From Formosa sp. Hel1_33_131 (GTDB taxonomy: Bacteria > Bacteroidota > Bacteroidia > Flavobacteriales > Flavobacteriaceae): a DNA stretch of 32,000 nt. The stretch is taken from assembly GCF_001735745.1 (NCBI RefSeq), contig NZ_CP017260.1:2580001-2612000 (forward strand), read 5' to 3'. A program made the translations under genes and the position numbers. Below are positions 7,009-27,197 of the stretch, one piece after another (position 1 is the stretch's first letter; each line of letters begins with the position of its first letter). The notes under the pieces are model-generated. The model was not told the DNA's origin. It searched no databases and saw only the letters and a program-made list of their open reading frames with translations.

Positions 7009-7973
7009 ACGACCCCACCTAGTGTTATTTCTTGTCTAATTTTAGCATTGCCAAAGGTTTTATTGACGGCTTCGATATAATACACTCCAGATCTATCTTC
7101 ATATAATTTACTAGTCAAATTAACTTTTAAACCATGTCTTACACTTGGCTCACCAAATGCTGTAAAACTGCCATCGAAACCGCCACGCTTTTTAGTTTCG
7201 TAATCTTTTTCTAAAAGCTTTTTAATTTCAGCTTTTAATTCAATATTGTAATACGTTAATTGGTATTCATCACCTCCTGGATCTCCAATTTCTGCTAATA
7301 CTTTTTTACCGTTTCTCAGGACAGAAACACCTTTAATTTTTAAAATAACATCTTCTGCATTTCTGTAATTTAGATCATTGCTGACGGCGTTGCGTTCTAA
7401 ATGAAAATTAACCGTTTCTTCTTCGCTATCATCTGCATAGTACTTACCACAAACCAATCGTTTGCCTTTCATATAGCTATACAAATTGTAAGGATCCTTA
7501 CTTAATTTCTCCAATACTAGTGCTACGGTACTTTTAGCAAACCGTACACCGCCAAGTTCTACGCCTTCTAAGGCATCTACAGCATAATTTGGTGCAATAG
7601 TTTCAAGAAGCTTTTGAAGGGTCACATTCTTAAAGCTTACATTAACGGGAAGCTGCTTTAGTTTCCACATTTCATCTTCACAAGTAATTACGACTGGGAT
7701 TCCAGCAGATGCTTGTGTTATATACCCCTCAAATTCCGTCACATAATTACCATTATAGCCAAATTCAATTTTAATTGGTGCGCCCCTTCTAAAAATAGCA
7801 CGCACTTTATGTTTGTCAAAGAACTTTACATTTCTGGGCAATGTTACAGTTGCCCGGTCTGTTAATTGTTTAAAACTCGTTTCAGTTGTTATGGCTGAAA
7901 CTTGATGTATTATTAATTCTCGTCTACCTTCATATTTTGGTAGCGTAATTCTTGCGTTTAGTGCTAATGCCAT
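7005..7973 (-). CDS. Baseplate hub protein (P2 gpD / Mu gp44-like)
   Basis: 322 aa, second gene after the tape measure, with a 4-nt overlap on its neighbour. Confidence 0.5.
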   Translation of the reverse strand: MALALNARITLPKYEGRRELIIHQVSAITTETSFKQLTDRATVTLPRNVKFFDKHKVRAIFRRGAPIKIEFGYNGNYVTEFEGYITQASAGIPVVITCEDEMWKLKQLPVNVSFKNVTLQKLLETIAPNYAVDALEGVELGGVRFAKSTVALVLEKLSKDPYNLYSYMKGKRLVCGKYYADDSEEETVNFHLERNAVSNDLNYRNAEDVILKIKGVSVLRNGKKVLAEIGDPGGDEYQLTYYNIELKAEIKKLLEKDYETKKRGGFDGSFTAFGEPSVRHGLKVNLTSKLYEDRSGVYYIEAVNKTFGNAKIRQEITLGGVV

Positions 7974-7976
7974 AAT

Positions 7977-8588
7977 TCACAAGATTAATTCCAATGGTGC
8001 ATCACTAACTGCTGCAATTTCAAAGGGTATTATATTTTGTTTCCCTTCTAGTTGTGGAAAATTAATGTCTTCTATAACCAATCTATAAATAGACTTGTCT
8101 AAAAACAATTCACCAATGACTTCTATACTATCTGCAATGTTTTCCCACTTCAACAATTCTTGGTGTTGTTCGTATGCAGATACTTGTGGCGTATCTAAAC
8201 ACAGCCCACGAAAACGTATTTGCCAATCATCAAAGCCATAAATCTCTTTTACCGTCCCATTACTCCCAAGTATTTTTGTTTTAGTGATGTTTTTTGCACG
8301 TCTAAAATCAATTAACGTGGCTGGTGGAATATTAAAATCATTTAATGCTTGATCATCAATTATACCTGTTTCTTTATAATATTGATATGTACTACCTTTA
8401 AACACCGTTGGATAAATAATAGGAGTTCCCAGCCATGACATTTTTTTAGCTTCTTTTTTTTCCTTAACAGGAATTGAAGTATAGCTAGCATCCCCATTTT
8501 GTGGTGCATCATTTGGCAATACAAAATTGGCTGTATTTACACCAAATGCTTTGCTTAATAAAGTTGCTATGTCAAAGTTTGTATTCAT
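7977..8588 (-). CDS. Tail/baseplate protein immediately after the tape measure
   Basis: 203 aa. Its start abuts the TMP stop. Function is suggested by position (Mu gp43 slot). Confidence 0.4.
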   Translation of the reverse strand: MNTNFDIATLLSKAFGVNTANFVLPNDAPQNGDASYTSIPVKEKKEAKKMSWLGTPIIYPTVFKGSTYQYYKETGIIDDQALNDFNIPPATLIDFRRAKNITKTKILGSNGTVKEIYGFDDWQIRFRGLCLDTPQVSAYEQHQELLKWENIADSIEVIGELFLDKSIYRLVIEDINFPQLEGKQNIIPFEIAAVSDAPLELIL

Positions 8589-10588
8589 TATAAGCTTATG
8601 ACTGCATCACGCAGTTTATCATTAATTTTCCCTGTGACTGCATCCGAAATTTTATCGACTTCATCGCGCCAATTATTAGCAATATTGAAATAGTTTTTTA
8701 TTTCTAAATTCATTGTTATTCGTTTGCCAACACCTTTACCAGAACCAGACAACCCAGATCCTTTTCCACCCGCTTTTACTACGCCATCTTGCGAACCATC
8801 TAAGCGTGGTGCATAACTCCCTACTTTGCCAGTTGGCAATACACTTTCTTCTTCATCTTCTTTTAGACTTAAGGACGCTCCAGCTTTCAGAAATTCTTTC
8901 CCAGACTGTAATGCTAAATCTGCGGCCTCTTTATAACCATCTACTATAGATTTTTTTCTAGCTTCTGTGTCTGCATTAATTTCGGCAAGCATCTTTTGGT
9001 TTTCGGTACTATCTCCAATACCCATCGCTTCCTTGAATTTATACCAACCCGTTTTAATGAGATTGATACCTAACATGAAGCCACTAACAAAAACATTAAG
9101 ATAGGCTTTGGTGGCCGCAATAAATGATTTAAACAATAGCTTTGCGCCCGTCCAAGTGTGGTCCCATGCTTCGCCCCAGCCTGTAATACTCGTTACTAAC
9201 CAAACAATGCCTGCAACTAATGCTGCAACACCAACTATTATTAGCCCGATTGGATTGGCGGTTAATGCTGCATTCCATAACCATTGTAATGCGGTCACTA
9301 CTTTTGTGCCAGCACTTTGTAGCCAAGTCACTTTAGTTAGAGTTGTTATTATTGGGATCATAGAAGCGATGCCAGTTGCTACAGGTGCTAATTCCACAAC
9401 ACTTGATGCAATACCGCCAAATGTTTCTGTAAAAGCGGTTCTAACACCTGCTAACCATCCTCTTATGGAGGCACCAGAAGAAGCTATAGAAGGTATATTG
9501 TTAATATCTAAATCAATACTGCCAAGCCCTTCAATCCAACCAATACCTGCATCCTCACCAGCGCCTTTAAAAATATCTGCGAGTACTAATTGCTTAGCAC
9601 TTACAGTGGCACCGTCCATCGCTTTACTAATCATCTGTACAGCTTCAAATGTGGTTTTTCCAGCTAAGTCTTTAACTTCAATGCCAATCCCTTTTAAGGC
9701 TTCCACTTGTGGTTTGCCCATTTCTCGTAAAGACAAATCAGCCTCTTTAATACTGTCAATCGCCTTATCTGAAAATATACCATCCTTACCCGCCTTCGCC
9801 ATCAATGCAATCGCTTGTGATTGTGATAAACCAACTTGATTTATAAAGGTTGGGTATTCTTTTAACTGGTCTATAAAATCACCATTAATATTTGCGCCTT
9901 TTTCAAAGCCAGCTTCTATTAATGCAAAGTTTTCTTCGTAAGAACCGCCTATTTGCTTGGTCATAGCATTCGCAGCTTTGGCAATTTCTTCTGGGCTTTG
10001 CTTAAAGACTGCACCTAGCTTATAGGCTCTCTCAGTAAGGCTGTCTAATTGTTCACCAGATGTGCCAGAAAAACGTTCTATAGTGGTGCTTAAATCATTA
10101 ATTTCAGTCGTAAACCGCAAACCATCAATCGCTTTGTTTACCAGTTCTATTGCTTGGTTGGCAACAACAACTGCTGCACCCCAATTAGCCTTCATTTTTT
10201 CAGAATTTGGTGCTTTTTCTACGGCTTCTAATTCATGCTGTACTTCAACTAATTGTTCTTTATAACGTCTAACTTTAGTTTCCGCTTTTTTAATGTCAAA
10301 ATCTATTGTTGCTTTTAGTAAAGGATCTATTGCAGGACCTAAACTTTTTAAATGATTTTTTAAGCTGTCTAGTTGTTTTTCTTCTTTTTTAACTTCTTTG
10401 GTAAGATCACTAAAACTTTTAATTGCGTTTTGAGCCGTTGCTTTTGTAGCATCGTCCATACCATCTAAAGCGCGTGTCACATTGTGAAGTGTCTTATTAA
10501 CATTTTTAGTTGCGCCATCAACGCTTCGCATAGGTGCAGTCACCTTGTCTATTAATTCAAAAACCCAACTTGTTTTACTGCTACCCAT
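8588..10588 (-). CDS. Tail tape measure protein
   Basis: 666 aa. N-terminal coiled coil, a central Gly/Ala-rich hydrophobic block (…IGLIIVGVAALVAGIVWLV…), and it follows the frameshifted chaperone pair. Confidence 0.85.
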   Translation of the reverse strand: MGSSKTSWVFELIDKVTAPMRSVDGATKNVNKTLHNVTRALDGMDDATKATAQNAIKSFSDLTKEVKKEEKQLDSLKNHLKSLGPAIDPLLKATIDFDIKKAETKVRRYKEQLVEVQHELEAVEKAPNSEKMKANWGAAVVVANQAIELVNKAIDGLRFTTEINDLSTTIERFSGTSGEQLDSLTERAYKLGAVFKQSPEEIAKAANAMTKQIGGSYEENFALIEAGFEKGANINGDFIDQLKEYPTFINQVGLSQSQAIALMAKAGKDGIFSDKAIDSIKEADLSLREMGKPQVEALKGIGIEVKDLAGKTTFEAVQMISKAMDGATVSAKQLVLADIFKGAGEDAGIGWIEGLGSIDLDINNIPSIASSGASIRGWLAGVRTAFTETFGGIASSVVELAPVATGIASMIPIITTLTKVTWLQSAGTKVVTALQWLWNAALTANPIGLIIVGVAALVAGIVWLVTSITGWGEAWDHTWTGAKLLFKSFIAATKAYLNVFVSGFMLGINLIKTGWYKFKEAMGIGDSTENQKMLAEINADTEARKKSIVDGYKEAADLALQSGKEFLKAGASLSLKEDEEESVLPTGKVGSYAPRLDGSQDGVVKAGGKGSGLSGSGKGVGKRITMNLEIKNYFNIANNWRDEVDKISDAVTGKINDKLRDAVISL

Positions 10589-18917: not shown

Positions 18918-19333
18918 TTTACTTAACGGATGATGATTTACTAACCGATAGTTTTCAGCGCTTTATTGATGAAAGCTCAAAAGACAATGAAGATGTGGTT
19001 GCTAATGCAGAACTAAAATGTATTGGCATCATTAAAACAATGCTTAAAGGGCGTTATAATACGGAGCTGATTTTTGATGAAACAGATCCCGTACGTGATG
19101 AGTTTTTAGCAGACATCTTAACCAAATTAACGCTACACAAAATATTTGGGCGTAATGCAGCACGTAAAGTACCAACAGACGTTAAAGACAATTACGATTG
19201 GGCCATGAAGCAATTAGGGTTGCTAAATGCAGGAAAATTACAGCTCGAATTACCAAGCCCCACAAACACCGATGGCACAGCTTCAGCTGCACCAATGTTT
19301 GGCAATAATACAAATCCAGATTTTTATATATAA
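18914..19333 (+). CDS. Head-tail connector protein (Mu gp36 / DUF1320-like)
   Basis: 139 aa. The pattern LTDDDL...AELKCIGIIKTMLKGRY...DILTKLTLHKIF...YDWAMKQLGLLNAGKL matches my recollection of this family. Confidence 0.5.
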   Translation: MIYLTDDDLLTDSFQRFIDESSKDNEDVVANAELKCIGIIKTMLKGRYNTELIFDETDPVRDEFLADILTKLTLHKIFGRNAARKVPTDVKDNYDWAMKQLGLLNAGKLQLELPSPTNTDGTASAAPMFGNNTNPDFYI

Positions 19334-20598
19334 TGAAAATACCTAAAATTATACACAACGCCGTTGCAAGATATGTTTTTAAAAATACCGATGAGCGCAC
19401 CTTAAAAGTTGTTGCAGCAACAAAGTCTGGTAACAGTAAAAGTTTAAGCGACCAAACCGAAAAAGAAGCGATTAGTATGCAGGCTAAAACACTTGCAGAT
19501 TGGAAGCTCGCATTAACATTGGCTAGTGATCCAGAAGAACCCACTTTTGGAGCATTAGAAAAATTATATCAAAATCTGGAGTTAGACAACCATTTAGTAG
19601 CTACGATTGAAAACAGAATAGAGCCGGTGCAAGGCACGCCATTTAAACTCACAGACCAATCTGGTAAAGAAAATGAAGAAGCCAAAGAACTATTTGAAGC
19701 AATGTGGTTTATAGATTTTATAGGGGTGTGTTTGCGTTCAAAGTTTCAAGGTACTAAAGTGGTTGAATTATTCGACCTAGACGAAAACATGCACCTAGAA
19801 AGCATCACAGAAGTACCTAAGGCACATGTGATACCATCAAAAGGTATTATTACAAAAGAAGCTGGTGGTACAACTGGATGGAATTATAAAGAAGGTATTT
19901 TTGCAGATCAATACATTCAAATTGGAAAAAATGATTTTCTTGGGATGTACGCACAGCTTGCGCCAATTGTACTCGCTAAAAAATTAGGCTTTGGTTCGTG
20001 GTTAGATTATGTAGAAAAGTATGGTGTGCCTCCAATTTTCGCCATTACAGACCGTGAAGATCAAGCACGTTTAGACCAACTCTACAATGCGTTGTTAAAT
20101 TTCAAGTCCAACAACTTCATGGTAGGTCGTGGGCAGGAAAAATTTGAGATTGGTAAAGATACTGGTGGAGGCTCTTTTGATATTTTTGATAAGCTAATTG
20201 AACGGGCAAATAGCGAACTATCTAAACGTATTTTAGGCGGTACCGGTACAACCGACGAAAAAAGCCACGTGGGTGCTGCAAATGTACATGCAGACATCTT
20301 GGCAACGAAGCACAAGCTAGATAAGTTTTTTGTAAAAGTTATTATTAATAATCAGTTAATCCCACGGCTCGTAAAGATAAGCCCCATATACGCATCCTTA
20401 GCTAATCTTAAATTTGATTGGGATGATGCCGAAACATTAACGTTAAAAGAGTTTATAGACACCGTTAAAGCTTTAAGTGCCTATTATGAAATTGATATCG
20501 AAGAATTGGCAACACGTACAGGCATTCCAATTACGGGTTTAAAAAATGCAATGGCAACACCACCAACCGATCCAGATCCTCAAAAAAAAAAGGAGTAA
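19333..20598 (+). CDS. Portal protein (Mu gp29 / DUF935-like)
   Basis: 421 aa, lying between the TerL/gp36-like genes and the MuF-like gene. It ends in a 10-A run. Confidence 0.7.
   Translation: MKIPKIIHNAVARYVFKNTDERTLKVVAATKSGNSKSLSDQTEKEAISMQAKTLADWKLALTLASDPEEPTFGALEKLYQNLELDNHLVATIENRIEPVQGTPFKLTDQSGKENEEAKELFEAMWFIDFIGVCLRSKFQGTKVVELFDLDENMHLESITEVPKAHVIPSKGIITKEAGGTTGWNYKEGIFADQYIQIGKNDFLGMYAQLAPIVLAKKLGFGSWLDYVEKYGVPPIFAITDREDQARLDQLYNALLNFKSNNFMVGRGQEKFEIGKDTGGGSFDIFDKLIERANSELSKRILGGTGTTDEKSHVGAANVHADILATKHKLDKFFVKVIINNQLIPRLVKISPIYASLANLKFDWDDAETLTLKEFIDTVKALSAYYEIDIEELATRTGIPITGLKNAMATPPTDPDPQKKKE
20582..20592 (+). promoter_or_regulatory. Candidate -1 recoding or transcriptional slippage site at the portal stop
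   Basis: CAA AAA AAA AAG GAG TAA contains A_AAA_AAA and A_AAA_AAG. The -1 frame is open from 20496 into the MuF ORF. Confidence 0.35.
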
Positions 20599-20666
20599 CT
20601 GAAGCGTTTACAAATATTGAGGCCTATTATAATGCGCCTTCATGTTCTCACGACCATGCAGCACCT

Positions 20667-21866
20667 GTGGCAATAGATTTAAATGGTTGGAATAAGACCA
20701 TTACACGCATTGCAAAACATCTACACACTGGGAAGTTAAAACCAAGTGATTTAGACCAGGATCTAATACAGCGCACATTTACTGAGCTTAATAAGGCTGC
20801 TGCTGAAGGTTATGGCGCAAACTACACCAGTTACAGTACAGAAAACAGTAAAACGGTACAACAGCTTCAGCAAAACATTTACCAGTTTAGTGCTGCTAAG
20901 ACGTTTCAGCAATTACAGAAATACAATAGTTTATTAGTAGATGAAAACGGCAAAGAACGTTCATTTTCTAGCTTTAAAAAGGCAGTATTAGCGGTGCATC
21001 CAAAATATAACACGAACTACTTACAAGCCGAATATCAAACCGCAAAAGCATCGGCGCAAATGGCAAGAAAGTGGCAAGGGTTTCAACGCAATAAAGCACG
21101 ATTTCCATATCTTAAATACAAAACAGTTGGAGACGACCACGTGCGTGACGATCACCAAAGGTTACAAAACTTTACAGCCCATATTGATGATCGTATATGG
21201 GACAAGATCTACCCACCCAACGGATGGCGGTGTCGCTGTTATATTGTGCAAACGAATGAAGCAAGTAATGAACCATCACCAGATACAAGCTTTATAGATC
21301 CTGAATTTAGTTTAAATGTGGGCAAAACGGGTGTAATATTCTCACCAGAACACCCCTATTTTGTGTTCCCTAAAAAAGATGAAGACAGTTATAAAAAGGC
21401 ATTTGAAACCTTTAAACTGATTGCTCCTTATGGAAAAGCAAAGTTTACAGCTAAAAATGGAGCTAAAGTATTTGTCAGTCCGTTTGCAGATCCTAACGAT
21501 TTAGAACACAATTTTGAAGTGGCTAAAGTGATGGCGAACACGCTTAAAAAGACTATAAAAATACGTCCGCATACGGATGGTACTGTAATCCTCAATGCAA
21601 AAAATCCAGAATACTTAGTCAATAAAAAAATCGCAGATTTAAAAGCTCCAAAAGGAGTCGCTTTAAAAAATATTTTTAAGAAGGCTAACAAACAAAAAAC
21701 AAAGGTGGTGGTGATTGATTTATTAAACAATCCAAATTCATTTGCACAAATGAAATTAGCGATTATAAAAAGGCTTGGTATAACTGATATTTATCCAAAT
21801 ATTGAAGAAGTGATTTTAATTTCAAAAGACCGTAAAACAATTGAAGTAATTAAACGCAAAAAGTAA
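20667..21866 (+). CDS. MuF-like minor head protein (Phage_Mu_F / SPP1 gp7 family)
   Basis: GDDHVRDDHQRLQNF...IYPPNGWRCRCYIV is the MuF signature. Its only nearby start candidate is GTG. Confidence 0.85.
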   Translation: MAIDLNGWNKTITRIAKHLHTGKLKPSDLDQDLIQRTFTELNKAAAEGYGANYTSYSTENSKTVQQLQQNIYQFSAAKTFQQLQKYNSLLVDENGKERSFSSFKKAVLAVHPKYNTNYLQAEYQTAKASAQMARKWQGFQRNKARFPYLKYKTVGDDHVRDDHQRLQNFTAHIDDRIWDKIYPPNGWRCRCYIVQTNEASNEPSPDTSFIDPEFSLNVGKTGVIFSPEHPYFVFPKKDEDSYKKAFETFKLIAPYGKAKFTAKNGAKVFVSPFADPNDLEHNFEVAKVMANTLKKTIKIRPHTDGTVILNAKNPEYLVNKKIADLKAPKGVALKNIFKKANKQKTKVVVIDLLNNPNSFAQMKLAIIKRLGITDIYPNIEEVILISKDRKTIEVIKRKK

Positions 21867-21878
21867 GACACAAAAAAA

Positions 21879-21903
21879 AGCAACCCGAAGATTGCTCTTT
21901 TGT
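21879..21903 (+). terminator. Weak stem-loop after the MuF-like gene
   Basis: An A8 run, AGCAA-cccgaaga-TTGCT, then CTTTTGT. Confidence 0.3.
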
Positions 21904-21958
21904 AACTAATTTCTTGAAATTACTCGCGACCCTTGTTACAGTACAAATATACAAAAAA

Positions 21959-22471
21959 ATGAATAAAGCAAACAAAATACCAGATTTTTTAGCCATGAGC
22001 CAACAGCTACTAAAGGACTTACAAAGTGATGCTGAAATAAAAGGTATGGAATTTATACATAGCAATTTTGAAAAACAAGGGTTTACAGATAACGCTTTTG
22101 AGGCGTGGAAACCGCGTAAAGAAAGTATGAGCTATAATTTATTACGTGTGACTAACAACCTGTTTAATTCTATAAATGTAGCAAGTAGCACACCAGAACG
22201 CATAACATTTGAAGCAGATGCACCTTATGCATCAATACACAATGAAGGGGGCATACTCAATGTGCCTATTACCGAACGGTCCCGTAAATACTTTTGGTTC
22301 ATGTTCAAGCAAACAGGCAAAGGGATGTGGCGGGCGATGGCTTTAACCAAAAAAACCCGATTGACTATTAAAATCGACCAAAGGCAATTCATGGGTCATA
22401 GTAACACCTTTTCTGAAGATTGGAATAACCATGTAACACAAGAAATTTTAACACGATTTAAAAACCTTTAA
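21959..22471 (+). CDS. Virion morphogenesis / head-tail completion protein (Mu gpG or HK97 gp10-like)
   Basis: IHSNFEKQGFTDNAFEAWKPRK...APYASIHNEGG pattern. I prefer ATG 21959 over the TTG 21914 used in the ORF track. Confidence 0.5.
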   Translation: MNKANKIPDFLAMSQQLLKDLQSDAEIKGMEFIHSNFEKQGFTDNAFEAWKPRKESMSYNLLRVTNNLFNSINVASSTPERITFEADAPYASIHNEGGILNVPITERSRKYFWFMFKQTGKGMWRAMALTKKTRLTIKIDQRQFMGHSNTFSEDWNNHVTQEILTRFKNL

Positions 22472-22484
22472 AACACCTTTTAAA

Positions 22485-22997
22485 ATGCAAAACTGGAAAG
22501 ATTTATACCAAGAACATGCGACAGCTGTAGAAACGAAGCTACCAGAAATAGAATGGTTTGATTTATGGCACAACCAGGTTAATTTTTTAACAGAAGAACA
22601 CCCCTTTAGCACACCTGCTTTATTTGTATCCTATCGAACAATAGGGATAGAAGATATTGGCGAAAAAGTACAAAAAGTAAACTTACAGGTAGATTTTTAT
22701 TTATACTATGAAACCTTTTTAGATACTTTTAGTGGCGCTTACAACCAACAAAGTGCTTTAGCTTTTATTGACCTCATGGATAAAATAAATGCTGTTTTTC
22801 ATGGTACAAGTGGCAAAAACTACAGCGAAATGAGACGTATTAATTTTGCACCCGTAGATACAGGGAATGCTGGCAATTTATACCGAATTAGCTACAGCTG
22901 TGTATTGCTAGATTACAGTGCTAAAAGTGGGTGTGTAGAAGAACAAAATGATGCCGATGTCAGTTTTGATAAAATCTCCTTTGAAATTGGACACTAA
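22485..22997 (+). CDS. Hypothetical head/neck protein
   Basis: 170-aa ORF, the last gene of the + strand late operon. Confidence 0.5.
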   Translation: MQNWKDLYQEHATAVETKLPEIEWFDLWHNQVNFLTEEHPFSTPALFVSYRTIGIEDIGEKVQKVNLQVDFYLYYETFLDTFSGAYNQQSALAFIDLMDKINAVFHGTSGKNYSEMRRINFAPVDTGNAGNLYRISYSCVLLDYSAKSGCVEEQNDADVSFDKISFEIGH

Positions 22998-23028
22998 AAA
23001 AACCAGTTAAATTAACTGGCTCTTTTTT
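22996..23028. terminator. Bidirectional rho-independent terminator between convergent operons
   Basis: An A7 run, CCAGTTAA-a-TTAACTGG (23003-23019), then CTCTTTTTT. Confidence 0.6.
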
Positions 23029-23206
23029 CGTATTTGTAAAATAATATATCTTCGATGGTCTTGGTGGTTTTATAAAACTTTTTGGCTAAAGCTGCTTTAA
23101 TATACGCATTGCTATATTTCTGGACACCAAAGCTTTTTACATTACAAAGGCGCTGGTGTTCTTCTCTAACAGCTTCATAGAGTCGTATGGTGGTGTCTCG
23201 TTGCAT
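23012..23206 (-). CDS. Small HTH-like protein (candidate Mor/C-type late activator)
   Basis: 64 aa. IKAALAKKFYKTTKTIEDILFY looks like a helix-turn-helix. It is the last gene of the leftward early/middle transcription unit. Confidence 0.35.
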   Translation of the reverse strand: MQRDTTIRLYEAVREEHQRLCNVKSFGVQKYSNAYIKAALAKKFYKTTKTIEDILFYKYEKRAS

Positions 23207-23251
23207 TACTTACAAAGTAAATACAAACTATTTAAATATCAAAATCGGGTT

Positions 23252-23644
23252 TTACTCGGTGGCTTTTTCGTACTCTTTTTTATCTTCTGACAACATCCGT
23301 TGATTTTGTGGTGTTATATTTTCAAAAGGATACAAAACATTTGCTTTGTCATACAATTCCAATGCTTTCTTTGCTGTTTCTTTTTGTAAATCTCCATCTA
23401 AATTAATTAGGTGAATAGCGACATAATAATATCTTTCACTTAACAGATAAAGCAAAAAAGCTTTGCCTTTATTGCATTTTTCTACAGGAGTTACAAAACA
23501 TTTTTCTTCTAATAACTGTAAACCTTCTTTTAACTGTTTTGAAGTGGCTCTAACTCTTACTTGTTCTTTAATAATTTCTTCAACTGTTTGTGCTTGTGAT
23601 AGGCTAAAACTGAATAGTAATGCAATAAGTAGGAGTTTTTTCAT
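23252..23644 (-). CDS. Secreted helical protein (moron)
   Basis: Signal peptide MKKLLLIALLFSFSLSQA|QT. ~32% GC in a spot count. Confidence 0.6.
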   Translation of the reverse strand: MKKLLLIALLFSFSLSQAQTVEEIIKEQVRVRATSKQLKEGLQLLEEKCFVTPVEKCNKGKAFLLYLLSERYYYVAIHLINLDGDLQKETAKKALELYDKANVLYPFENITPQNQRMLSEDKKEYEKATE

Positions 23645-23697
23645 GATTTAGAGGTTTGGACTAAAGATAATAAAAATACTTTAAATGAAAAACGGAA

Positions 23698-24588
23698 TTA
23701 TATTAATGACATTTGATTGTCATCTGATGGTCTTGGATTTATTTTTATGACTTCTATAATTTCGTGTGTAGTACTTATAACTTCGTAATTATAATCATAT
23801 TTAACAGTAATTTTAACCATACAGACCAAAGAGTCTTGCGGACGAACATCTATTTTCCTATTCTGAAAATCTTTTAACCAATCTTCGTGTGTTATTTTTG
23901 CAGAGATTGTTCCGTTTCCGTGTTTGAATGACCATTTTGAATCGCCTAAATAATCTGGTTTCTTGACTTTTAAAATCATTTTGGAATTAGATTCTAATTC
24001 TTCTTCCGTTATCAAATCTTCCATTGACTCGACATCAATTTTCAAATTAAGATTGAAAGATGCGTTTCCGAATGGAGATTCATAAGAAACCTTATCTGTA
24101 TCTGAAAGAACTTCTAACGACTGATTTATGTTGTCTATGTTTTTAATTATGGTTTTTTTATTTGTCGGAACATAAGTCGGAATTTGGTCAATTCCTGTTT
24201 CAGTTGCTGCTTTTTTTAATTCCATCTCAATCACTTCTATTTCAGTTGCGTCAGTTAATCTAACTTTACCTTCTAAAACATTTAAAGCAATGTATTTTGC
24301 TTTTAACAAATAATGACCTATCATTTTTTTATAATCTAAATCACCAATAGCACTATCTGGAACTTTTCTTAATGCGTTTGCTAAAATTGTTTTTAAAGAA
24401 CCTTTTTCTACATCTTCGAGAATTAAAACAGTTTCAATTTTATTATCAATATGTTTGACTAAATCTTTATCGAATTGTTCAAACGATTCAATTAAAGAAG
24501 CCATTGATTTAAAAACTCTCGATGGATTTGGAGATTTCTTATCAAAGTCTATAATTATACTAAAATCATTGTTTTCTTTTAGTTTCAT
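23698..24588 (-). CDS. Orphan 296-aa protein, no recognisable motif
   Basis: Long clean ORF, 25-30% GC in spot counts against ~37% for the phage backbone. A 128-nt upstream gap holds a TATATTTG -7 box. Confidence 0.6.
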   Translation of the reverse strand: MKLKENNDFSIIIDFDKKSPNPSRVFKSMASLIESFEQFDKDLVKHIDNKIETVLILEDVEKGSLKTILANALRKVPDSAIGDLDYKKMIGHYLLKAKYIALNVLEGKVRLTDATEIEVIEMELKKAATETGIDQIPTYVPTNKKTIIKNIDNINQSLEVLSDTDKVSYESPFGNASFNLNLKIDVESMEDLITEEELESNSKMILKVKKPDYLGDSKWSFKHGNGTISAKITHEDWLKDFQNRKIDVRPQDSLVCMVKITVKYDYNYEVISTTHEIIEVIKINPRPSDDNQMSLI

Positions 24589-24608
24589 CTAACAGATTTT
24601 ACTAAAAA

Positions 24609-24616
24609 CAAATATA
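24609..24616 (-). promoter_or_regulatory. Bacteroidota-type -7 promoter element (TAnnTTTG)
   Basis: The reverse complement reads TATATTTG, ~20 nt upstream of ATG 24588. Confidence 0.35.
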
Positions 24617-24716
24617 CAAAATATAGGTAAAAGTATACGTTATTTTTGCTTCCTTAGTAAGGATGTTTACTTTATTTTCAGTTCTTGCGCTTGGGATGCA
24701 CCCCATATTTCCAGTT

Positions 24717-25145
24717 TCAGAAAAGCTCAATCATAACACCAGAAAATTCTTTAGCGGTGAACCAGTCTGTAAAATCAGCTGCAGTATCAAATCCTTCACG
24801 CTTAACAATATGATTAATTGCGCAATTATCACTACAAACACCATTTATTGACATTTCAAAACCGTTATGGCTGTTGGTTATAAAAACTCTATGGGTTGCC
24901 ATTTCATAAACTCTAGCAAACTCCACTTGTTTACTTCGATAGGGTTTATCACTCCAATAGCGTAGCGATAAAAAGGCACGACCTTCGTTTACTTCATGCC
25001 TTATTTTTCGCCATCTTTTTTCATTACCTCTTATTGTGGTGGTTTTAGTTTTTGTAAGAAGTTTGTCTATAAAATTTGTCGCCTCCCCTTTTCTTGTATG
25101 ATGCGATGGAAATTTTTTTGAAAATGTTAATACAATTGTTTTCAT
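24717..25145 (-). CDS. ASCH/PUA-like domain protein
   Basis: FPSHHTRKGEATNFIDKLLTKTKTTTIRGNEKRW resembles the ASCH beta-barrel N-terminal pattern (G-x-K-x-x-TIR). Confidence 0.4.
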   Translation of the reverse strand: MKTIVLTFSKKFPSHHTRKGEATNFIDKLLTKTKTTTIRGNEKRWRKIRHEVNEGRAFLSLRYWSDKPYRSKQVEFARVYEMATHRVFITNSHNGFEMSINGVCSDNCAINHIVKREGFDTAADFTDWFTAKEFSGVMIELF

Positions 25146-25163
25146 TCTAACCTTTATTTTAAA

Positions 25164-25499
25164 TTAGTGTTTAAGCCCACAGTTACTGCAGTATACTATT
25201 TCTTTGTCGTCTATTACTGGCATATCGTTTTCACATTCAAAACAATGCATCCAGAAAACTTGATCATCATCAGGTGATACTGGTTTTTGCTTTGCTACAC
25301 TTTTGTTAAACCATCGACGTATTACATACCCTCTTAATATGCTTATCGCAGTAAAAAATAATGTAATGATGATATTTTTACCAGCTGAACTAGCGATACC
25401 TACTAAAGGAAATATTAAAAAGGTAGAAGCAAAGGATATTAAAAAGCCCACAGCTGTATTAATACACGCTTCTGCTAGTGATTGTTTTTTAGTTTGCAT
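25164..25499 (-). CDS. Two-TM membrane protein with a C-terminal zinc ribbon
   Basis: Hydrophobic segments INTAVGFLISFASTFLIFPLVGI and IIITLFFTAISIL, then CFEC...14 aa...CSNC. Confidence 0.55.
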   Translation of the reverse strand: MQTKKQSLAEACINTAVGFLISFASTFLIFPLVGIASSAGKNIIITLFFTAISILRGYVIRRWFNKSVAKQKPVSPDDDQVFWMHCFECENDMPVIDDKEIVYCSNCGLKH

Positions 25500-25502
25500 G
25501 GT

Positions 25503-25721
25503 TTATTGTTTTAAGTTTTCTAAAGCCTTGATAGCATATTCATTGTTTAATTTTGCTAATTGCTTCAATTTTTTTAGGTCTGTTACATAATAATTAGGTC
25601 GACCATTATACCATTTTGTTCCTTTTTTTACGATTAAGCTCTTATCCTTCAAATCGCTCTCATAATTGCTATGATTGAATTTGCTGACCTTGCAAAAATC
25701 TCTAAATTGTGATACGCACAT
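25503..25721 (-). CDS. Hypothetical early protein
   Basis: 72-aa ORF, co-oriented, with a 3-nt gap to the next gene. Confidence 0.45.
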   Translation of the reverse strand: MCVSQFRDFCKVSKFNHSNYESDLKDKSLIVKKGTKWYNGRPNYYVTDLKKLKQLAKLNNEYAIKALENLKQ

Positions 25722-25755
25722 TGTCTATTATTTTAGTTGTTTCTAGGTTGCTTAT

Positions 25756-26007
25756 TTACAGGATTACTGTTTTTAATTTTTTAATGAGTTCTATGTTTAT
25801 AGGTTTAATGCCATCCTCAATAATCTCGTAATTTGAAAATTGTGAGGTTATTTTATTATCTCGATATTCATTAATAATCTCAATAAAAGAGGTTTTTGTT
25901 TTAATTTCTGCAACCCTATAAGCAAAGCCATCATCGCATTCATCGCTAATTTTTGGTAGTAGTATAAATCCTAATTCTATTAATTGTTTGTCCGTTAAGT
26001 GTTTCAT
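25756..26007 (-). CDS. Hypothetical early protein
   Basis: 83-aa co-oriented ORF. Confidence 0.45.
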   Translation of the reverse strand: MKHLTDKQLIELGFILLPKISDECDDGFAYRVAEIKTKTSFIEIINEYRDNKITSQFSNYEIIEDGIKPINIELIKKLKTVIL

Positions 26008-26011
26008 TATT

Positions 26012-26719
26012 TTATTGTTTTATTGTTTTACGTTTTCGTTTTAGTATATCTAAATAGGGTTTGCGACCTGGGTTCTTACTCCAGTCTAAAATGGTGTCTT
26101 CTAGCATTTGTCGATCCATATACGCAGTAATCTTGTCTATGTAATTTTCTACACGCTTCACAAAGTTTTTCTTTTCTATTTTGGCATATGACTTTTTTAC
26201 ATCATCCATTGTGGTTGGGATGCTATTACGTTCGTTTTTTTGCGTGTTGTATTTTTGTTCTCGTAATTCCGCTTTTTTGTCTAAATACTTAGGGTACCAT
26301 TCGCCAAAAATTAGATTGCTATCGATACTTTTTTTAGCAACTCCAAACTTCCCAGAGCGACACATTTTAAAAAACAGTATGACATCCTCTAGGCTCTCAT
26401 AAGCAAAGTTTTCTAGGGTATCGACTGTAAGACTATCTATTTGATCTGCATTTAGTTTGGTGGTAAAAGCAAAGGAGTCAATAAAACGAGTAACCAACAC
26501 ATTCACAACGCTAAAGCCAACACTACTATGATCACCTATAAAAACACTTCTTAAATGAGGCTTTGAAAAGGTTTCGTTTATTGTTAAACCCATTTCAATC
26601 TGTGCTAATTTAGCGTTGCCCTCAATGATGCTTTTACTTAAACTTAAAGTTTCGCCCTGTCTCGCTTTCCATTGCGGATTTAAAGACCTGCTGGTTTGTT
26701 TTATTAACGCCTTTGACAT
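26012..26719 (-). CDS. Hypothetical early protein (start uncertain; alternative ATG at 26593)
   Basis: 235-aa ORF. Its first 86 nt overlap the upstream ORF. Confidence 0.5.
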   Translation of the reverse strand: MSKALIKQTSRSLNPQWKARQGETLSLSKSIIEGNAKLAQIEMGLTINETFSKPHLRSVFIGDHSSVGFSVVNVLVTRFIDSFAFTTKLNADQIDSLTVDTLENFAYESLEDVILFFKMCRSGKFGVAKKSIDSNLIFGEWYPKYLDKKAELREQKYNTQKNERNSIPTTMDDVKKSYAKIEKKNFVKRVENYIDKITAYMDRQMLEDTILDWSKNPGRKPYLDILKRKRKTIKQ

Positions 26720-27197
26720 TGATTAATATTTTATTGATTTGACTACTTATGAATTTTAAATCGGCACTTTTTTTATAGAAGTTATCCAGTTTGTGCCAAT
26801 TCTGTAAAATGATTTTCCAAAGCTGTAATGCCTCTTTTTCATCTTGCGATATCTCAGTAAGGTATTTTATGATAGCCTTTAAGCTTCTGCCATCTGTAGC
26901 ATTAAAACGAGGCTTTATTTTCATAAAATCATCATAAAAAGCAAACCATTCATCCAGAAATTCTGTGTACAAACTTTTCACTTTTATTATAGGCGAAATA
27001 ATAATTAAGTGACCTAAATTTTGGGTGTGCTGCTCTATAGCTTTTTCTGTTGGCGGTATTAATGCACCAATACTTTTTACTTGTGCATCTGTTAGCTTAC
27101 CTGTTAGTTTTTCTACTTTCAAAAAAGTATTATTACGATAGGTTACTTTTAAATTAGTACTGCAACTCTTTATGTGTATTTTGTAATGATTAGTCAT
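26634..27197 (-). CDS. Hypothetical early protein
   Basis: 187-aa co-oriented ORF. Confidence 0.5.
   Translation of the reverse strand: MTNHYKIHIKSCSTNLKVTYRNNTFLKVEKLTGKLTDAQVKSIGALIPPTEKAIEQHTQNLGHLIIISPIIKVKSLYTEFLDEWFAFYDDFMKIKPRFNATDGRSLKAIIKYLTEISQDEKEALQLWKIILQNWHKLDNFYKKSADLKFISSQINKILINVKGVNKTNQQVFKSAMESETGRNFKFK

Follow-up and report, generated by a model that had tools for sequence, protein, structure and literature searches.

An apparently mobile promoter-plus-ORF cassette carrying a candidate defence gene in the accessory slot of a Mu-like Formosa prophage

PDC-S42 is a single-gene 'phage defence candidate', one of 145 candidates put forward through guilt-by-embedding, candidates of this kind being defined by their embedding in, or adjacency to, BREX, DISARM or type I restriction-modification (RM) loci (Payne et al. 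2024 bioRxiv), and DUF6575 is a domain reported from one E. coli PD defence system that has been validated (Vassallo et al. 2022). In the supplements searched, neither the definition of PDC-S42 nor the identity of the PD system bearing DUF6575 was found, and the literature searched held no mention of 'PDC-S42' or of the 'LAPAL motif' that gives the NCBIfam family NF053583 its name. The protein of 296 aa described here shows some likeness to all three, and the database labels for its family contradict one another: NCBIfam has 'putative phage structural protein', PADLOC has 'defence candidate', and the PHROGs have 'unknown'.

The gene for this protein lies in a 32,000-nucleotide stretch of Formosa sp. 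Hel1_33_131 (hereafter the window), which carries a Mu-like prophage in a Flavobacteriaceae-type genome, recognizable by Portal_Mu, Mu F, Gp36 and a Mu G-like protein and, further, by Mu protease I, a MuB-like AAA protein and DUF3164; no tRNA genes were found in the window. The leftward early operon ends distally in a hypervariable accessory segment (23649..26001, minus strand), where synteny with the closest relative (L016) breaks: the two sequences correspond from 19000 to 23648 and then again from 26002, at ~80% nucleotide identity on both flanks, and the relative lacks the 296-aa gene. The sequence-only reading had drawn an island of foreign genes at 23252–24716; on the evidence of synteny, the limits shift to those of the variable segment. 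The segment holds the 296-aa gene, a 142-aa gene (phrog_8581), a DUF7220 gene with a zinc ribbon, and two ORFs of 72 and 83 aa, and its GC content of 0.303 makes it the lowest 2.35 kb of the window. In related phages the slot carries a rhomboid protease, Dam and Dcm methyltransferases, or a reverse transcriptase, and tblastn with the 296-aa gene gave zero matches in all 15 of the related Mu-like contigs. A search of viral contigs with the 142-aa upstream gene returned no relatives. RM, BREX and DISARM components were sought near the window gene and none was found, phage genes lying on both sides.

Comparison of its copies shows the 296-aa gene to be, at the level of nucleotide homology, a discrete mobile promoter-plus-ORF cassette of ~0.94 kb (~23684..24632, minus strand) inside this prophage slot, made up of 35–44 nt of promoter, the ORF and 0–14 nt past the stop codon. 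The cassette recurs at 81–91% nucleotide identity in four unrelated contexts, which include another Flavobacteriaceae genome, an integrase island and a polyketide/flexirubin-like gene cluster. Identity is 91% to the copy in L030, 84% to that in L012 and 81% to those in L013/L014; homology begins and ends at the cassette limits, and the flanks of the copies, the window's own included, are unrelated in every case. The GC profile of the window is non-uniform, and the cassette, with a GC content of 0.280 versus 0.357 for the window outside the variable segment, is its lowest-GC stretch of ~950 nt; when a 949-nt frame is slid along the window, 0.13% of positions have a GC as low, and the minimum, located at 23671, coincides with the cassette. 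Taken gene by gene, GC is 0.285 for the 296-aa gene (z = –2.0) and 0.300 for the adjacent 130-aa gene (z = –1.5), against a gene mean of 0.349 (sd 0.032). The low GC that had been remarked on for both genes is a real trough with the window minimum at the cassette, but the fall is modest and arises mainly at codon positions 1 and 2, the GC3 deviation being weak (z = –1.3 for the 296-aa gene and –1.4 for the 130-aa gene).

The cassette appears to bring its own promoter. An exact match to the Bacteroidota-type –7 box TAnnTTTG, TATATTTG, occupies 24609..24616 (minus strand), 20 nt 5′ of the ATG, within a 128-nt spacer (24589..24716, minus strand) whose cassette portion is limited to the proximal ~44 nt; spacer and box, the latter on the coding strand, are present as had been read from the letters. 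TAnnTTTG is also found 20–24 nt 5′ of the ATG in L030, L012, L013 and L001, as in the window, with 'nn' and the surrounding bases differing among them, and in L001, where the upstream region cannot be aligned with that of the window, the chance expectation of such a box is ~1.6%. It is because the position of the motif relative to the ATG is kept in orthologues that we read the box as a putative promoter belonging to the 296-aa gene itself, which would then be driven independently of the phage early promoter. Motif enrichment was also considered as a measure of the significance of TATATTTG and was rejected, TAnnTTTG having 40 matches in the window versus 55 expected. The 128-nt spacer contains no terminator, no Rfam match and no significant RNA structure (z = –0.56). 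Downstream of the 296-aa gene, a scan found no terminator ahead of the 130-aa gene, and the next lies at 23003–23019, past a 64-aa ORF; the 296-aa gene is therefore not a fully insulated transcription unit, and its transcript would continue through the genes of 130 and 64 aa.

The CDS itself (23698..24588, minus strand) encodes a two-domain protein, predicted to be soluble, of the NF053583/phrog_27740/PDC-S42-related family. Both this ORF and that of 130 aa (23252..23644, minus strand) are as the sequence-only reading gave them, although its description of the 296-aa protein as an orphan gives way to a family: a word index yielded 377 homologues, and the cluster representatives at 50% identity include 1,463 relatives, nearly all of them ~300 aa long and distributed patchily over more than 12 phyla. 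The NF053583 profile matches with 117 bits (cut-off 60) and over its full length, residues 9–284 aligning with profile positions 1–291 of 292, and the PHROG matches are phrog_27740 and phrog_3243. The sole match in the defence library of PADLOC is to the candidate PDC-S42 (E = 7.4e-12), and it is restricted to the C-terminal ~98 residues (190–287), which align with profile positions 201–293 of 302 and leave the N-domain outside the model; 29 of 31 family members match PDC-S42, likewise via the C-terminal domain. Homology with a conserved early or structural protein of Mu was not found. Pfam gave zero matches at E ≤ 1 for the 296-aa or the 130-aa protein, a profile of the 296-aa family alignment had zero matches among PDB sequences at E ≤ 10, and a 578-aa fusion protein (P0125) has an extra N-terminal 280 residues with no Pfam match.

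The AlphaFold2 model of the 296-aa protein (mean pLDDT 79) has the helical N-terminal half and beta-rich C-terminal half that had been anticipated from the sequence. There is no transmembrane segment, the top 19-residue Kyte–Doolittle value of 0.67 indicating a soluble protein, and the protein is acidic, with a net charge of –9. Foldseek comparison of the whole model with the PDB yielded OB-like trends but nothing below 1e-3. The C-terminal ~100 residues gave recurrent OB-like matches (probability 0.7–0.99, best E 7e-3, TM-scores of 0.3–0.4 on the target), and the N-domain alone gave generic helical bundles only (best E = 0.7), with no PDB match. As neither the N-domain nor the whole model has a significant PDB match, no catalytic activity can be named. 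Residues invariant in the family occur in both parts of the protein: R24, D40, D59, S64, D78 and K98 in the N-domain, and K209, D212, Y213, W219, W237, F241, P250 and D252 in the C-terminal barrel.

Beyond the closest copies, the family is found in varied company. Among the 547 neighbouring genes at its loci, which form 504 clusters, no conserved partner emerges, and the 130-aa gene of the window and the genes that follow the family member in L001 and L008 are mutually unrelated. IS1595-family transposases are enriched 12.6-fold at ±1–2 genes (9 of 289 near neighbours versus 2 of 784 distal ones, p = 2e-4). At two loci (L037 and L070), inverted repeats of 25–33 nt enclose an IS1595-type transposase together with a relative of the 296-aa gene, and identical duplicated units of 1.0–1.1 kb occur within genomes (L002/L003 and L068/L070). 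These arrangements show that more distant relatives ride as passengers in what, by their gene and repeat content, are IS1595-family transposons. Some settings are defence-like: one relative (L008) lies with a type I RM system, the duplicated pair L002/L003 with toxin–antitoxin, Fic and DUF2971 genes, and a relative in a Vibrio prophage with Phd/RelE, and methyltransferase, Mrr and MmeI domains are among the near neighbours. Two observations count against a defence reading, namely that RM-type domains are on only ~5–6% of near neighbours (a raw share, for the near set alone) and that several homologues sit among housekeeping genes. When PADLOC was run on 144 near neighbours, redundant methyltransferase models dominated, with four proteins matching them.

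The reading that we prefer, though we would put it slightly below an even chance, is that the variable slot of this Mu-like prophage has taken up the 296-aa gene as a mobile accessory gene with a promoter of its own, defence being its candidate function. The protein would most probably act alone, providing an accessory function that benefits its carrier, and the mechanism that we favour would be defence against other phages or mobile elements. The OB-like C-terminal barrel may recognise a nucleic acid or a phage protein via its invariant aromatic and charged residues, and the fold-novel helical N-domain may carry an effector or oligomerisation activity via its own. The broader proposition, that the family constitutes a new single-protein anti-phage or anti-mobile-element system, in which an OB-like barrel would be the sensor and a helical domain of unmatched fold the effector, spread both as a 0.94–1.1-kb cassette and as an IS1595 passenger, is a good deal more doubtful, and we hold it as a possibility only.

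Of the other functions that the 296-aa protein might have, an early role in the phage itself is the one to which we give most weight, unlikely as it still appears. On this account the protein would serve host takeover in the lytic phase or escape from immunity, for instance as a nucleic-acid-binding protein or an acidic decoy, and such a role is consistent with the net charge noted above, with the early-strand position of the gene in a Mu-like phage and with its slot, which in relatives holds anti-restriction Dam and Dcm methyltransferases, with the RM genes that adjoin some homologues, and with the two PHROG families that include relatives. A homologue is present, however, in only 2 of 50,697 phage records, both times in a cargo region near the end of the record, and many homologues, preceded by upstream regions of their own, occupy chromosomal non-phage sites, IS1595 transposons or a biosynthetic cluster, places where a counter-defence gene would be of little use. 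The gene could also be selfish, serving the element that carries it (in transposition, target choice or post-segregational stabilisation) and not the host, a view that the specific enrichment of IS1595-family transposases, the repeat-bounded units of transposase plus gene and the identical copies within one genome would all suit. IS1595-family elements with passenger genes have reportedly been described in ISfinder. We nevertheless consider this rather improbable: 68 of the 79 loci lack an IS1595 transposase within a distance of four genes, the orientation of the relatives to the transposase varies, no antitoxin-like partner is conserved, and neither a transposase nor flanking repeats accompany the window copy or the closest cassette copies, a search for terminal repeats around the window cassette giving only short matches of the chance type. 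A structural or morphogenetic role, as the name of NF053583 would have it, seems very improbable indeed. Head genes do adjoin the 296-aa gene in the window, and a portal/capsid block does so in L001, but the gene is missing from 15 related phages that share the head and tail modules, is present in non-phage contexts, and is transcribed convergently to the head operon of the window. In addition, the record of Mesorhizobium phage vB_MseS-P1 flags 15 proteins from virion mass spectrometry and leaves the homologue gp62 unflagged, and the LAPAL motif was found neither in the window protein nor in 76 homologues from genome contigs (searched as LAPAL, LAP.L and L.PAL).

A separate question concerns the 130-aa gene, which the sequence-only reading had joined to its neighbour as a second foreign gene and a candidate moron. 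Its product is predicted to be a secreted protein with two conserved cysteines: the N-terminus resembles a signal peptide (MKKLLLIALLFSFSLSQA|Q; top 15-residue Kyte–Doolittle value of 2.04, residues 4–18), and all four aligned homologues likewise begin with one or two charged residues followed by a hydrophobic stretch, in keeping with the signal peptide that had been proposed. A role in superinfection exclusion or lysogenic conversion would fit these features, as well as an evolution faster than that of the flanks (42% tblastn identity over 111 residues to the L016 copy versus 86–88% for the neighbours) and the occurrence, at the same position in L019 and L022, of a secreted or lipoprotein gene of another family. 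The gene is not foreign, however: it lies inside a block syntenic with L016, and 6 of the 15 related contigs have a homologue at the corresponding position, with 34–44% identity. Its family numbers 32 proteins, each of ~130 aa, and those named are all from Flavobacteriaceae (Formosa, Yeosuana, Seonamhaeicola and Winogradskyella). It has no –7 box of its own, overlaps the upstream gene in L016, has a GC3 within the range of other genes and gave zero matches in the family libraries searched, and we judge the moron role for this protein to be improbable. Nor is it the last gene before the terminator, as a count of two genes had implied. A third ORF, of 64 aa (23012..23206, minus strand), intervenes; its GC of 0.359 is normal, 13 of the 15 related contigs give a tblastn match at the equivalent position (34–88% identity), and the family libraries searched (Pfam and PHROG) have no match to it. 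A scan places a bidirectional intrinsic terminator hairpin, common to both convergent operons, at 23003..23019, reading on the minus strand as CCAGTTAATTTAACTGG followed by TTTTTTT. From their conservation, the 130-aa and 64-aa genes are evidently ordinary genes of the lineage, outside the mobile unit. The moron idea accordingly divides, standing for the 296-aa gene (absent from all 15 relatives, with a conserved –7 box, in the lowest-GC stretch and matching PDC-S42) and failing for the 130-aa gene, which is backbone.

What follows from the preferred reading, that of an accessory gene with defence as its candidate function, depends on the outcome for defence. Were defence confirmed, the gene would be a new-fold single-gene system and would illustrate clearly the spread of immune genes by insertion sequences; should the broader proposition hold, insertion sequences and Mu-like prophages would be the vehicles of a previously uncharacterised immune gene. 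If defence is not confirmed, what would be left is an ordinary accessory gene occupying the variable slot of this Mu-like prophage. In either case the 296-aa gene offers a concrete example of prophage cargo from a large family with contradictory labels, for which the minimal mobile unit is here defined as promoter plus ORF, the structural label is argued against, and invariant residues are listed for mutation; the link of the family to IS1595 transposons may not have been noted before.

Set against the known systems, the locus resembles each in part. DUF6575 is a lead only: the second-best structural match of the 296-aa model in BFVD is a viral protein annotated with DUF6575 (E = 2e-5 over 210 columns), but the TM-score is 0.3 and the rmsd 6.9, and there is neither a Pfam match at E ≤ 1 nor a PADLOC match to a PD system. 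OB-fold domains (SSB/RPA, the LysRS N-domain, the ExoVII large subunit and S1) are recurrent Foldseek matches of the modelled C-terminal ~100 residues, which include invariant aromatic and charged residues, although all E-values exceed 1e-3, TM-scores are low and no PDB match exists at the sequence level. The likeness to NF053583, the 'LAPAL motif-containing putative phage structural protein', is full-length and extends to protein length and two-domain layout, whereas the eponymous motif is absent, and the genomic context and gp62 virion proteomics argue against the role named. PDC-S42 is matched by the C-terminal barrel and is alike in overall size (a profile of 302 positions), in single-gene organization and, through the L008 relative, in a place beside a type I RM system, but only residues 190–287 align and the window gene is surrounded by no BREX, DISARM or RM locus. 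Like the passengers of IS1595-family transposons (tIS), the family includes relatives enclosed by repeats together with a transposase (L037 and L070) and duplicated within genomes, whereas the window copy is without transposase and terminal repeats. Finally, as with phage morons in the sense of Juhala and Hendrix, the 296-aa gene is inserted in a prophage, is missing from close relatives, and has its own predicted promoter and a deviant composition; it differs from them in having no terminator of its own, in lying in a 2.35-kb segment replaced wholesale and not between genes that are adjacent in relatives, and in that the same cassette is also found outside phages.

The window holds a Mu-like prophage, encoding Portal_Mu, Mu F, Gp36 and one virion morphogenesis protein like Mu G; a Clp/Mu-I protease, tape-measure protein, MuB-like AAA protein and DUF3164 are encoded as well. 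Its leftward early operon converges with the head module, and at the operon's distal end lie three minus-strand genes encoding proteins of 296 aa (23698..24588), 130 aa (23252..23644) and 64 aa (23012..23206). The sequence-only reading had described the first two, with coordinates and lengths that agree exactly with the ORF listing, as the only genes preceding the convergent terminator; the 64-aa ORF, downstream of the 130-aa gene, in fact intervenes. The terminator found by scanning, a hairpin with T-runs on both strands at 23003-23019, is common to both convergent operons. A second terminator-like hairpin (23244-23260, plus strand) overlaps the 130-aa stop codon antisense to the coding strand and may be due to chance, given two sites found versus 1.6 expected. 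On the other strand, the Mu F-like head protein (20667-21866, plus strand) matches the CdiA_C toxin domain over C-terminal residues 312-390 (E = 1.1e-5; 25.9 bits, slightly below the 26.6 cut-off), in resemblance to the MuF polymorphic toxins of temperate phages.

Twenty window proteins were compared by tblastn with 15 related Mu-like viral contigs, recovered with the 170-aa protein encoded immediately across the terminator. No gene in this part of the prophage is better conserved than the 64-aa ORF, which occupies the same position in 13 of the 15 contigs (34-88% identity) and had no family match in Pfam or PHROG searches. The 130-aa protein occurs at the same position in six (34-44% identity), and the 296-aa protein in none. 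A profile of the 130-aa family comprises 32 proteins of ~130 aa, all annotated as hypothetical; those with a named source all come from Flavobacteriaceae genera. With L016, the relative closest to the window (nucleotide identity about 80%), synteny is unbroken over window positions 19000-23648, ending four bases beyond the 130-aa start codon, and resumes at 26002, which places the variable segment proper at 23649-26001. The 130-aa and 64-aa genes are thus backbone, and the earlier picture of a foreign gene pair at 23252-24716 does not hold.

Related phages fill the variable segment with other cargo, which marks it as an accessory-gene hot spot. In L016, the place of the 296-aa gene is taken (7153-10262) by anti-restriction-type cargo, namely a rhomboid-family membrane protease with Dam (D12) and Dcm (C5) DNA methyltransferases. 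Two other related contigs, L018 and L022, carry an RVT_1 reverse transcriptase (320 aa, E = 1e-19; 9384-10346 and 8494-9456, respectively) beside a conserved 98-aa protein (9101-9397 and 8211-8507), a pair that could form a retron-, Abi- or DGR-like module. Within the window slot, a 111-aa protein (25164-25499, minus strand) matches DUF7220 (E = 2e-28), with two hydrophobic stretches followed by a C-terminal zinc ribbon; by tblastn, it recurs in the slots of three related contigs (L018, L019 and L021) and not in L016. The minus-strand ORFs at 26012-26719 and 26634-27197 overlap by 86 nt as listed, as they do in L016; either the downstream gene starts further along than listed, or the overlap may itself be conserved.

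Comparison of the window with four unrelated loci carrying close homologues shows that the 296-aa gene forms, within this slot, a single-gene cassette that is mobile and brings its own promoter. Nucleotide homology begins 35-44 nt 5′ of the ATG and stops 0-14 nt past the stop codon, with unrelated flanks in all four loci: Croceitalea marina (91% identity), an integrase island (84%), and two copies (L013 and L014; 81%) beside an HTH_3 gene in a ketosynthase/ApeP/ABC-transporter cluster. The surroundings of the latter copies look like an aryl-polyene/flexirubin-type biosynthetic cluster, in which the cassette and a 99-aa HTH_3 gene, together at L013 6838-8081, lie between 4HBT thioesterase and ketoacyl synthase genes. 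The common upstream stretch contains TAnnTTTG at a constant distance from the ATG (TATATTTG, TATCTTTG, TACCTTTG, TATTTTTG); the window copy, at 24616..24609 on the minus strand within the 128-nt spacer (24589-24716), is the perfect −7 box reported previously. The upstream region of a further homologue, L001, is unalignable, yet TACATTTG occurs at −29 (chance per locus about 1.6%). TAnnTTTG is not enriched across the window (40 matches versus 55 expected); the promoter call relies on the conserved position of the motif, not on its mere presence. Scanning found no terminator in the spacer; its RNA folding is not significant (z = −0.56), and Rfam gave no match. Expression of the 296-aa gene would be independent of the early promoter, with probable read-through into the two downstream genes.

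The AT-rich composition noted earlier is real, although modest. Against a GC average of 0.349 (sd 0.032) over 45 ORFs treated as genes, the 296-aa gene (0.285, z = −2.0) is second lowest overall and lowest among genes >100 aa; the 130-aa gene is at 0.300 (z = −1.5), and the 64-aa ORF is normal (0.359). Since GC3 deviates less (0.205 and 0.198 for the 296- and 130-aa genes, z about −1.3 to −1.4), amino-acid composition accounts for much of the drop. The cassette (0.280) is essentially the GC minimum of the 32 kb in sliding 949-nt windows (0.279 at 23671), with only 0.13% as low, and the 2.35-kb variable segment (0.303) is the lowest of its size, compared to 0.357 for the remainder.

The 296-aa protein is not an orphan as had been supposed, but belongs to a large, horizontally spread family, with 377 word-indexed homologues and, counted as representatives of clusters at 50% identity, 1,463 relatives at E ≤ 1e-3 (489 at E ≤ 1e-30). 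Eighty genome loci (36-56% identity) span Bacteroidota, Ignavibacteria, Chloroflexota, Cyanobacteria, Acidobacteriota, Bacillota, Nitrospirota, Alpha-, Beta-, Gamma- and Deltaproteobacteria, the candidate phyla Saccharibacteria and Levyibacteriota, and others. Of the 150 relatives listed, almost all measure 290-320 aa. The sole long one, a metagenomic protein of 578 aa (P0125), may be either a true fusion or an error of gene calling; the additional 280 residues at its N-terminus gave no Pfam match and include RNPVMH, an R-x4-H motif that recalls HEPN domains.

The predicted division into a helical N-terminal half and a beta-rich C-terminal half is borne out by the AlphaFold2 model (mean pLDDT 79), in which residues 1-157 form a strand plus six helices and residues 166-284 a beta barrel. 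Foldseek against the PDB returned nothing below 1e-3 for the whole model, and the N-domain modelled separately (pLDDT 78) found no structural relative (best E = 0.7). The C-terminal ~100 residues recurrently matched OB folds (LysRS N-domain, SSB, RPA, ExoVII, Est3/TPP1, S1) with probability up to 0.99, none below E 1e-3. Residues conserved in ≥90% of 77 sequences include R24, D40, D59, S64, D78, K98 and Y139 in the N-domain, and K209, P211, D212, Y213, G215, W219, W237, F241, P250 and D252 in the barrel. The protein has a net charge of −9 and no transmembrane segment.

A structural role is named by the full-length NCBIfam match NF053583 (117 bits, cut-off 60), 'LAPAL motif-containing putative phage structural protein'. 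However, the homologue gp62 of Mesorhizobium phage vB_MseS-P1 is not among the 15 proteins flagged in that record from virion mass spectrometry; we consider this role highly improbable. A phage counter-defence or early function, for which one might cite the early-operon location and the L016 cargo, is unlikely; only 2 of 50,697 phage records encode a family protein, both near the record end in a cargo region. The protein also matches phrog_27740 and phrog_3243, neither of which has an assigned function. The family lacks a conserved partner gene (547 neighbours within four genes form 504 clusters), and its sole recurrent neighbour is an IS1595-family transposase (11 of 79 loci), enriched 12.6-fold at ±1-2 genes (9/289) versus ≥5 positions (2/784; Fisher p = 2e-4). 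Inverted repeats flank transposase and family gene together in two loci, L037 (8955-11281; 31/33 nt matching, with no target-site duplication seen) and L070 (9866-11890; 30 nt). L070 and L068 share identical gene and transposase modules, present twice in one Paracoccaceae genome, where a 1.16-kb insertion interrupts one of the copies. The unit shared identically by L002 and L003 (1,098 bp) consists of the family gene and 180 nt upstream only. An IS1595-linked role, as a selfish passenger or in addiction, is rather unlikely.

We favour a stand-alone defensive role, in which the OB-like barrel may act as the recognition module. Family genes are next to type I RM in L008 and, in a Vibrio prophage, next to Phd/RelE and a transposase; in L002/L003 the surrounding genes are toxin-antitoxin, Fic and DUF2971. 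The L006 copy closes an integrase/DnaB island, and the L004 copy has housekeeping genes on both sides. The earlier suggestion of a defence or exclusion gene is supported in part, and the observation behind it is confirmed in part. The cassette and cargo component is secure; defence by itself is possible but doubtful, and the combined statement, with independent expression included, falls a little short of an even call. PADLOC PDC-S42 matches the C-terminal ~98 residues only (E = 7.4e-12; likewise in 29 of 31 relatives) and is one of 145 'phage defence candidates' nominated by guilt-by-embedding within loci for BREX, DISARM and type I RM. Among predicted viral structures, the model came closest to a mycobacteriophage protein that is itself uncharacterised (E = 5e-6) and to one annotated DUF6575 (E = 2e-5). 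One validated PD defence system of E. coli contains the DUF6575 domain, for which Pfam and PADLOC searches gave no sequence-level link to the 296-aa protein. The 296-aa gene is a member of a catalogued, so far uncharacterised family rather than a new kind of system.
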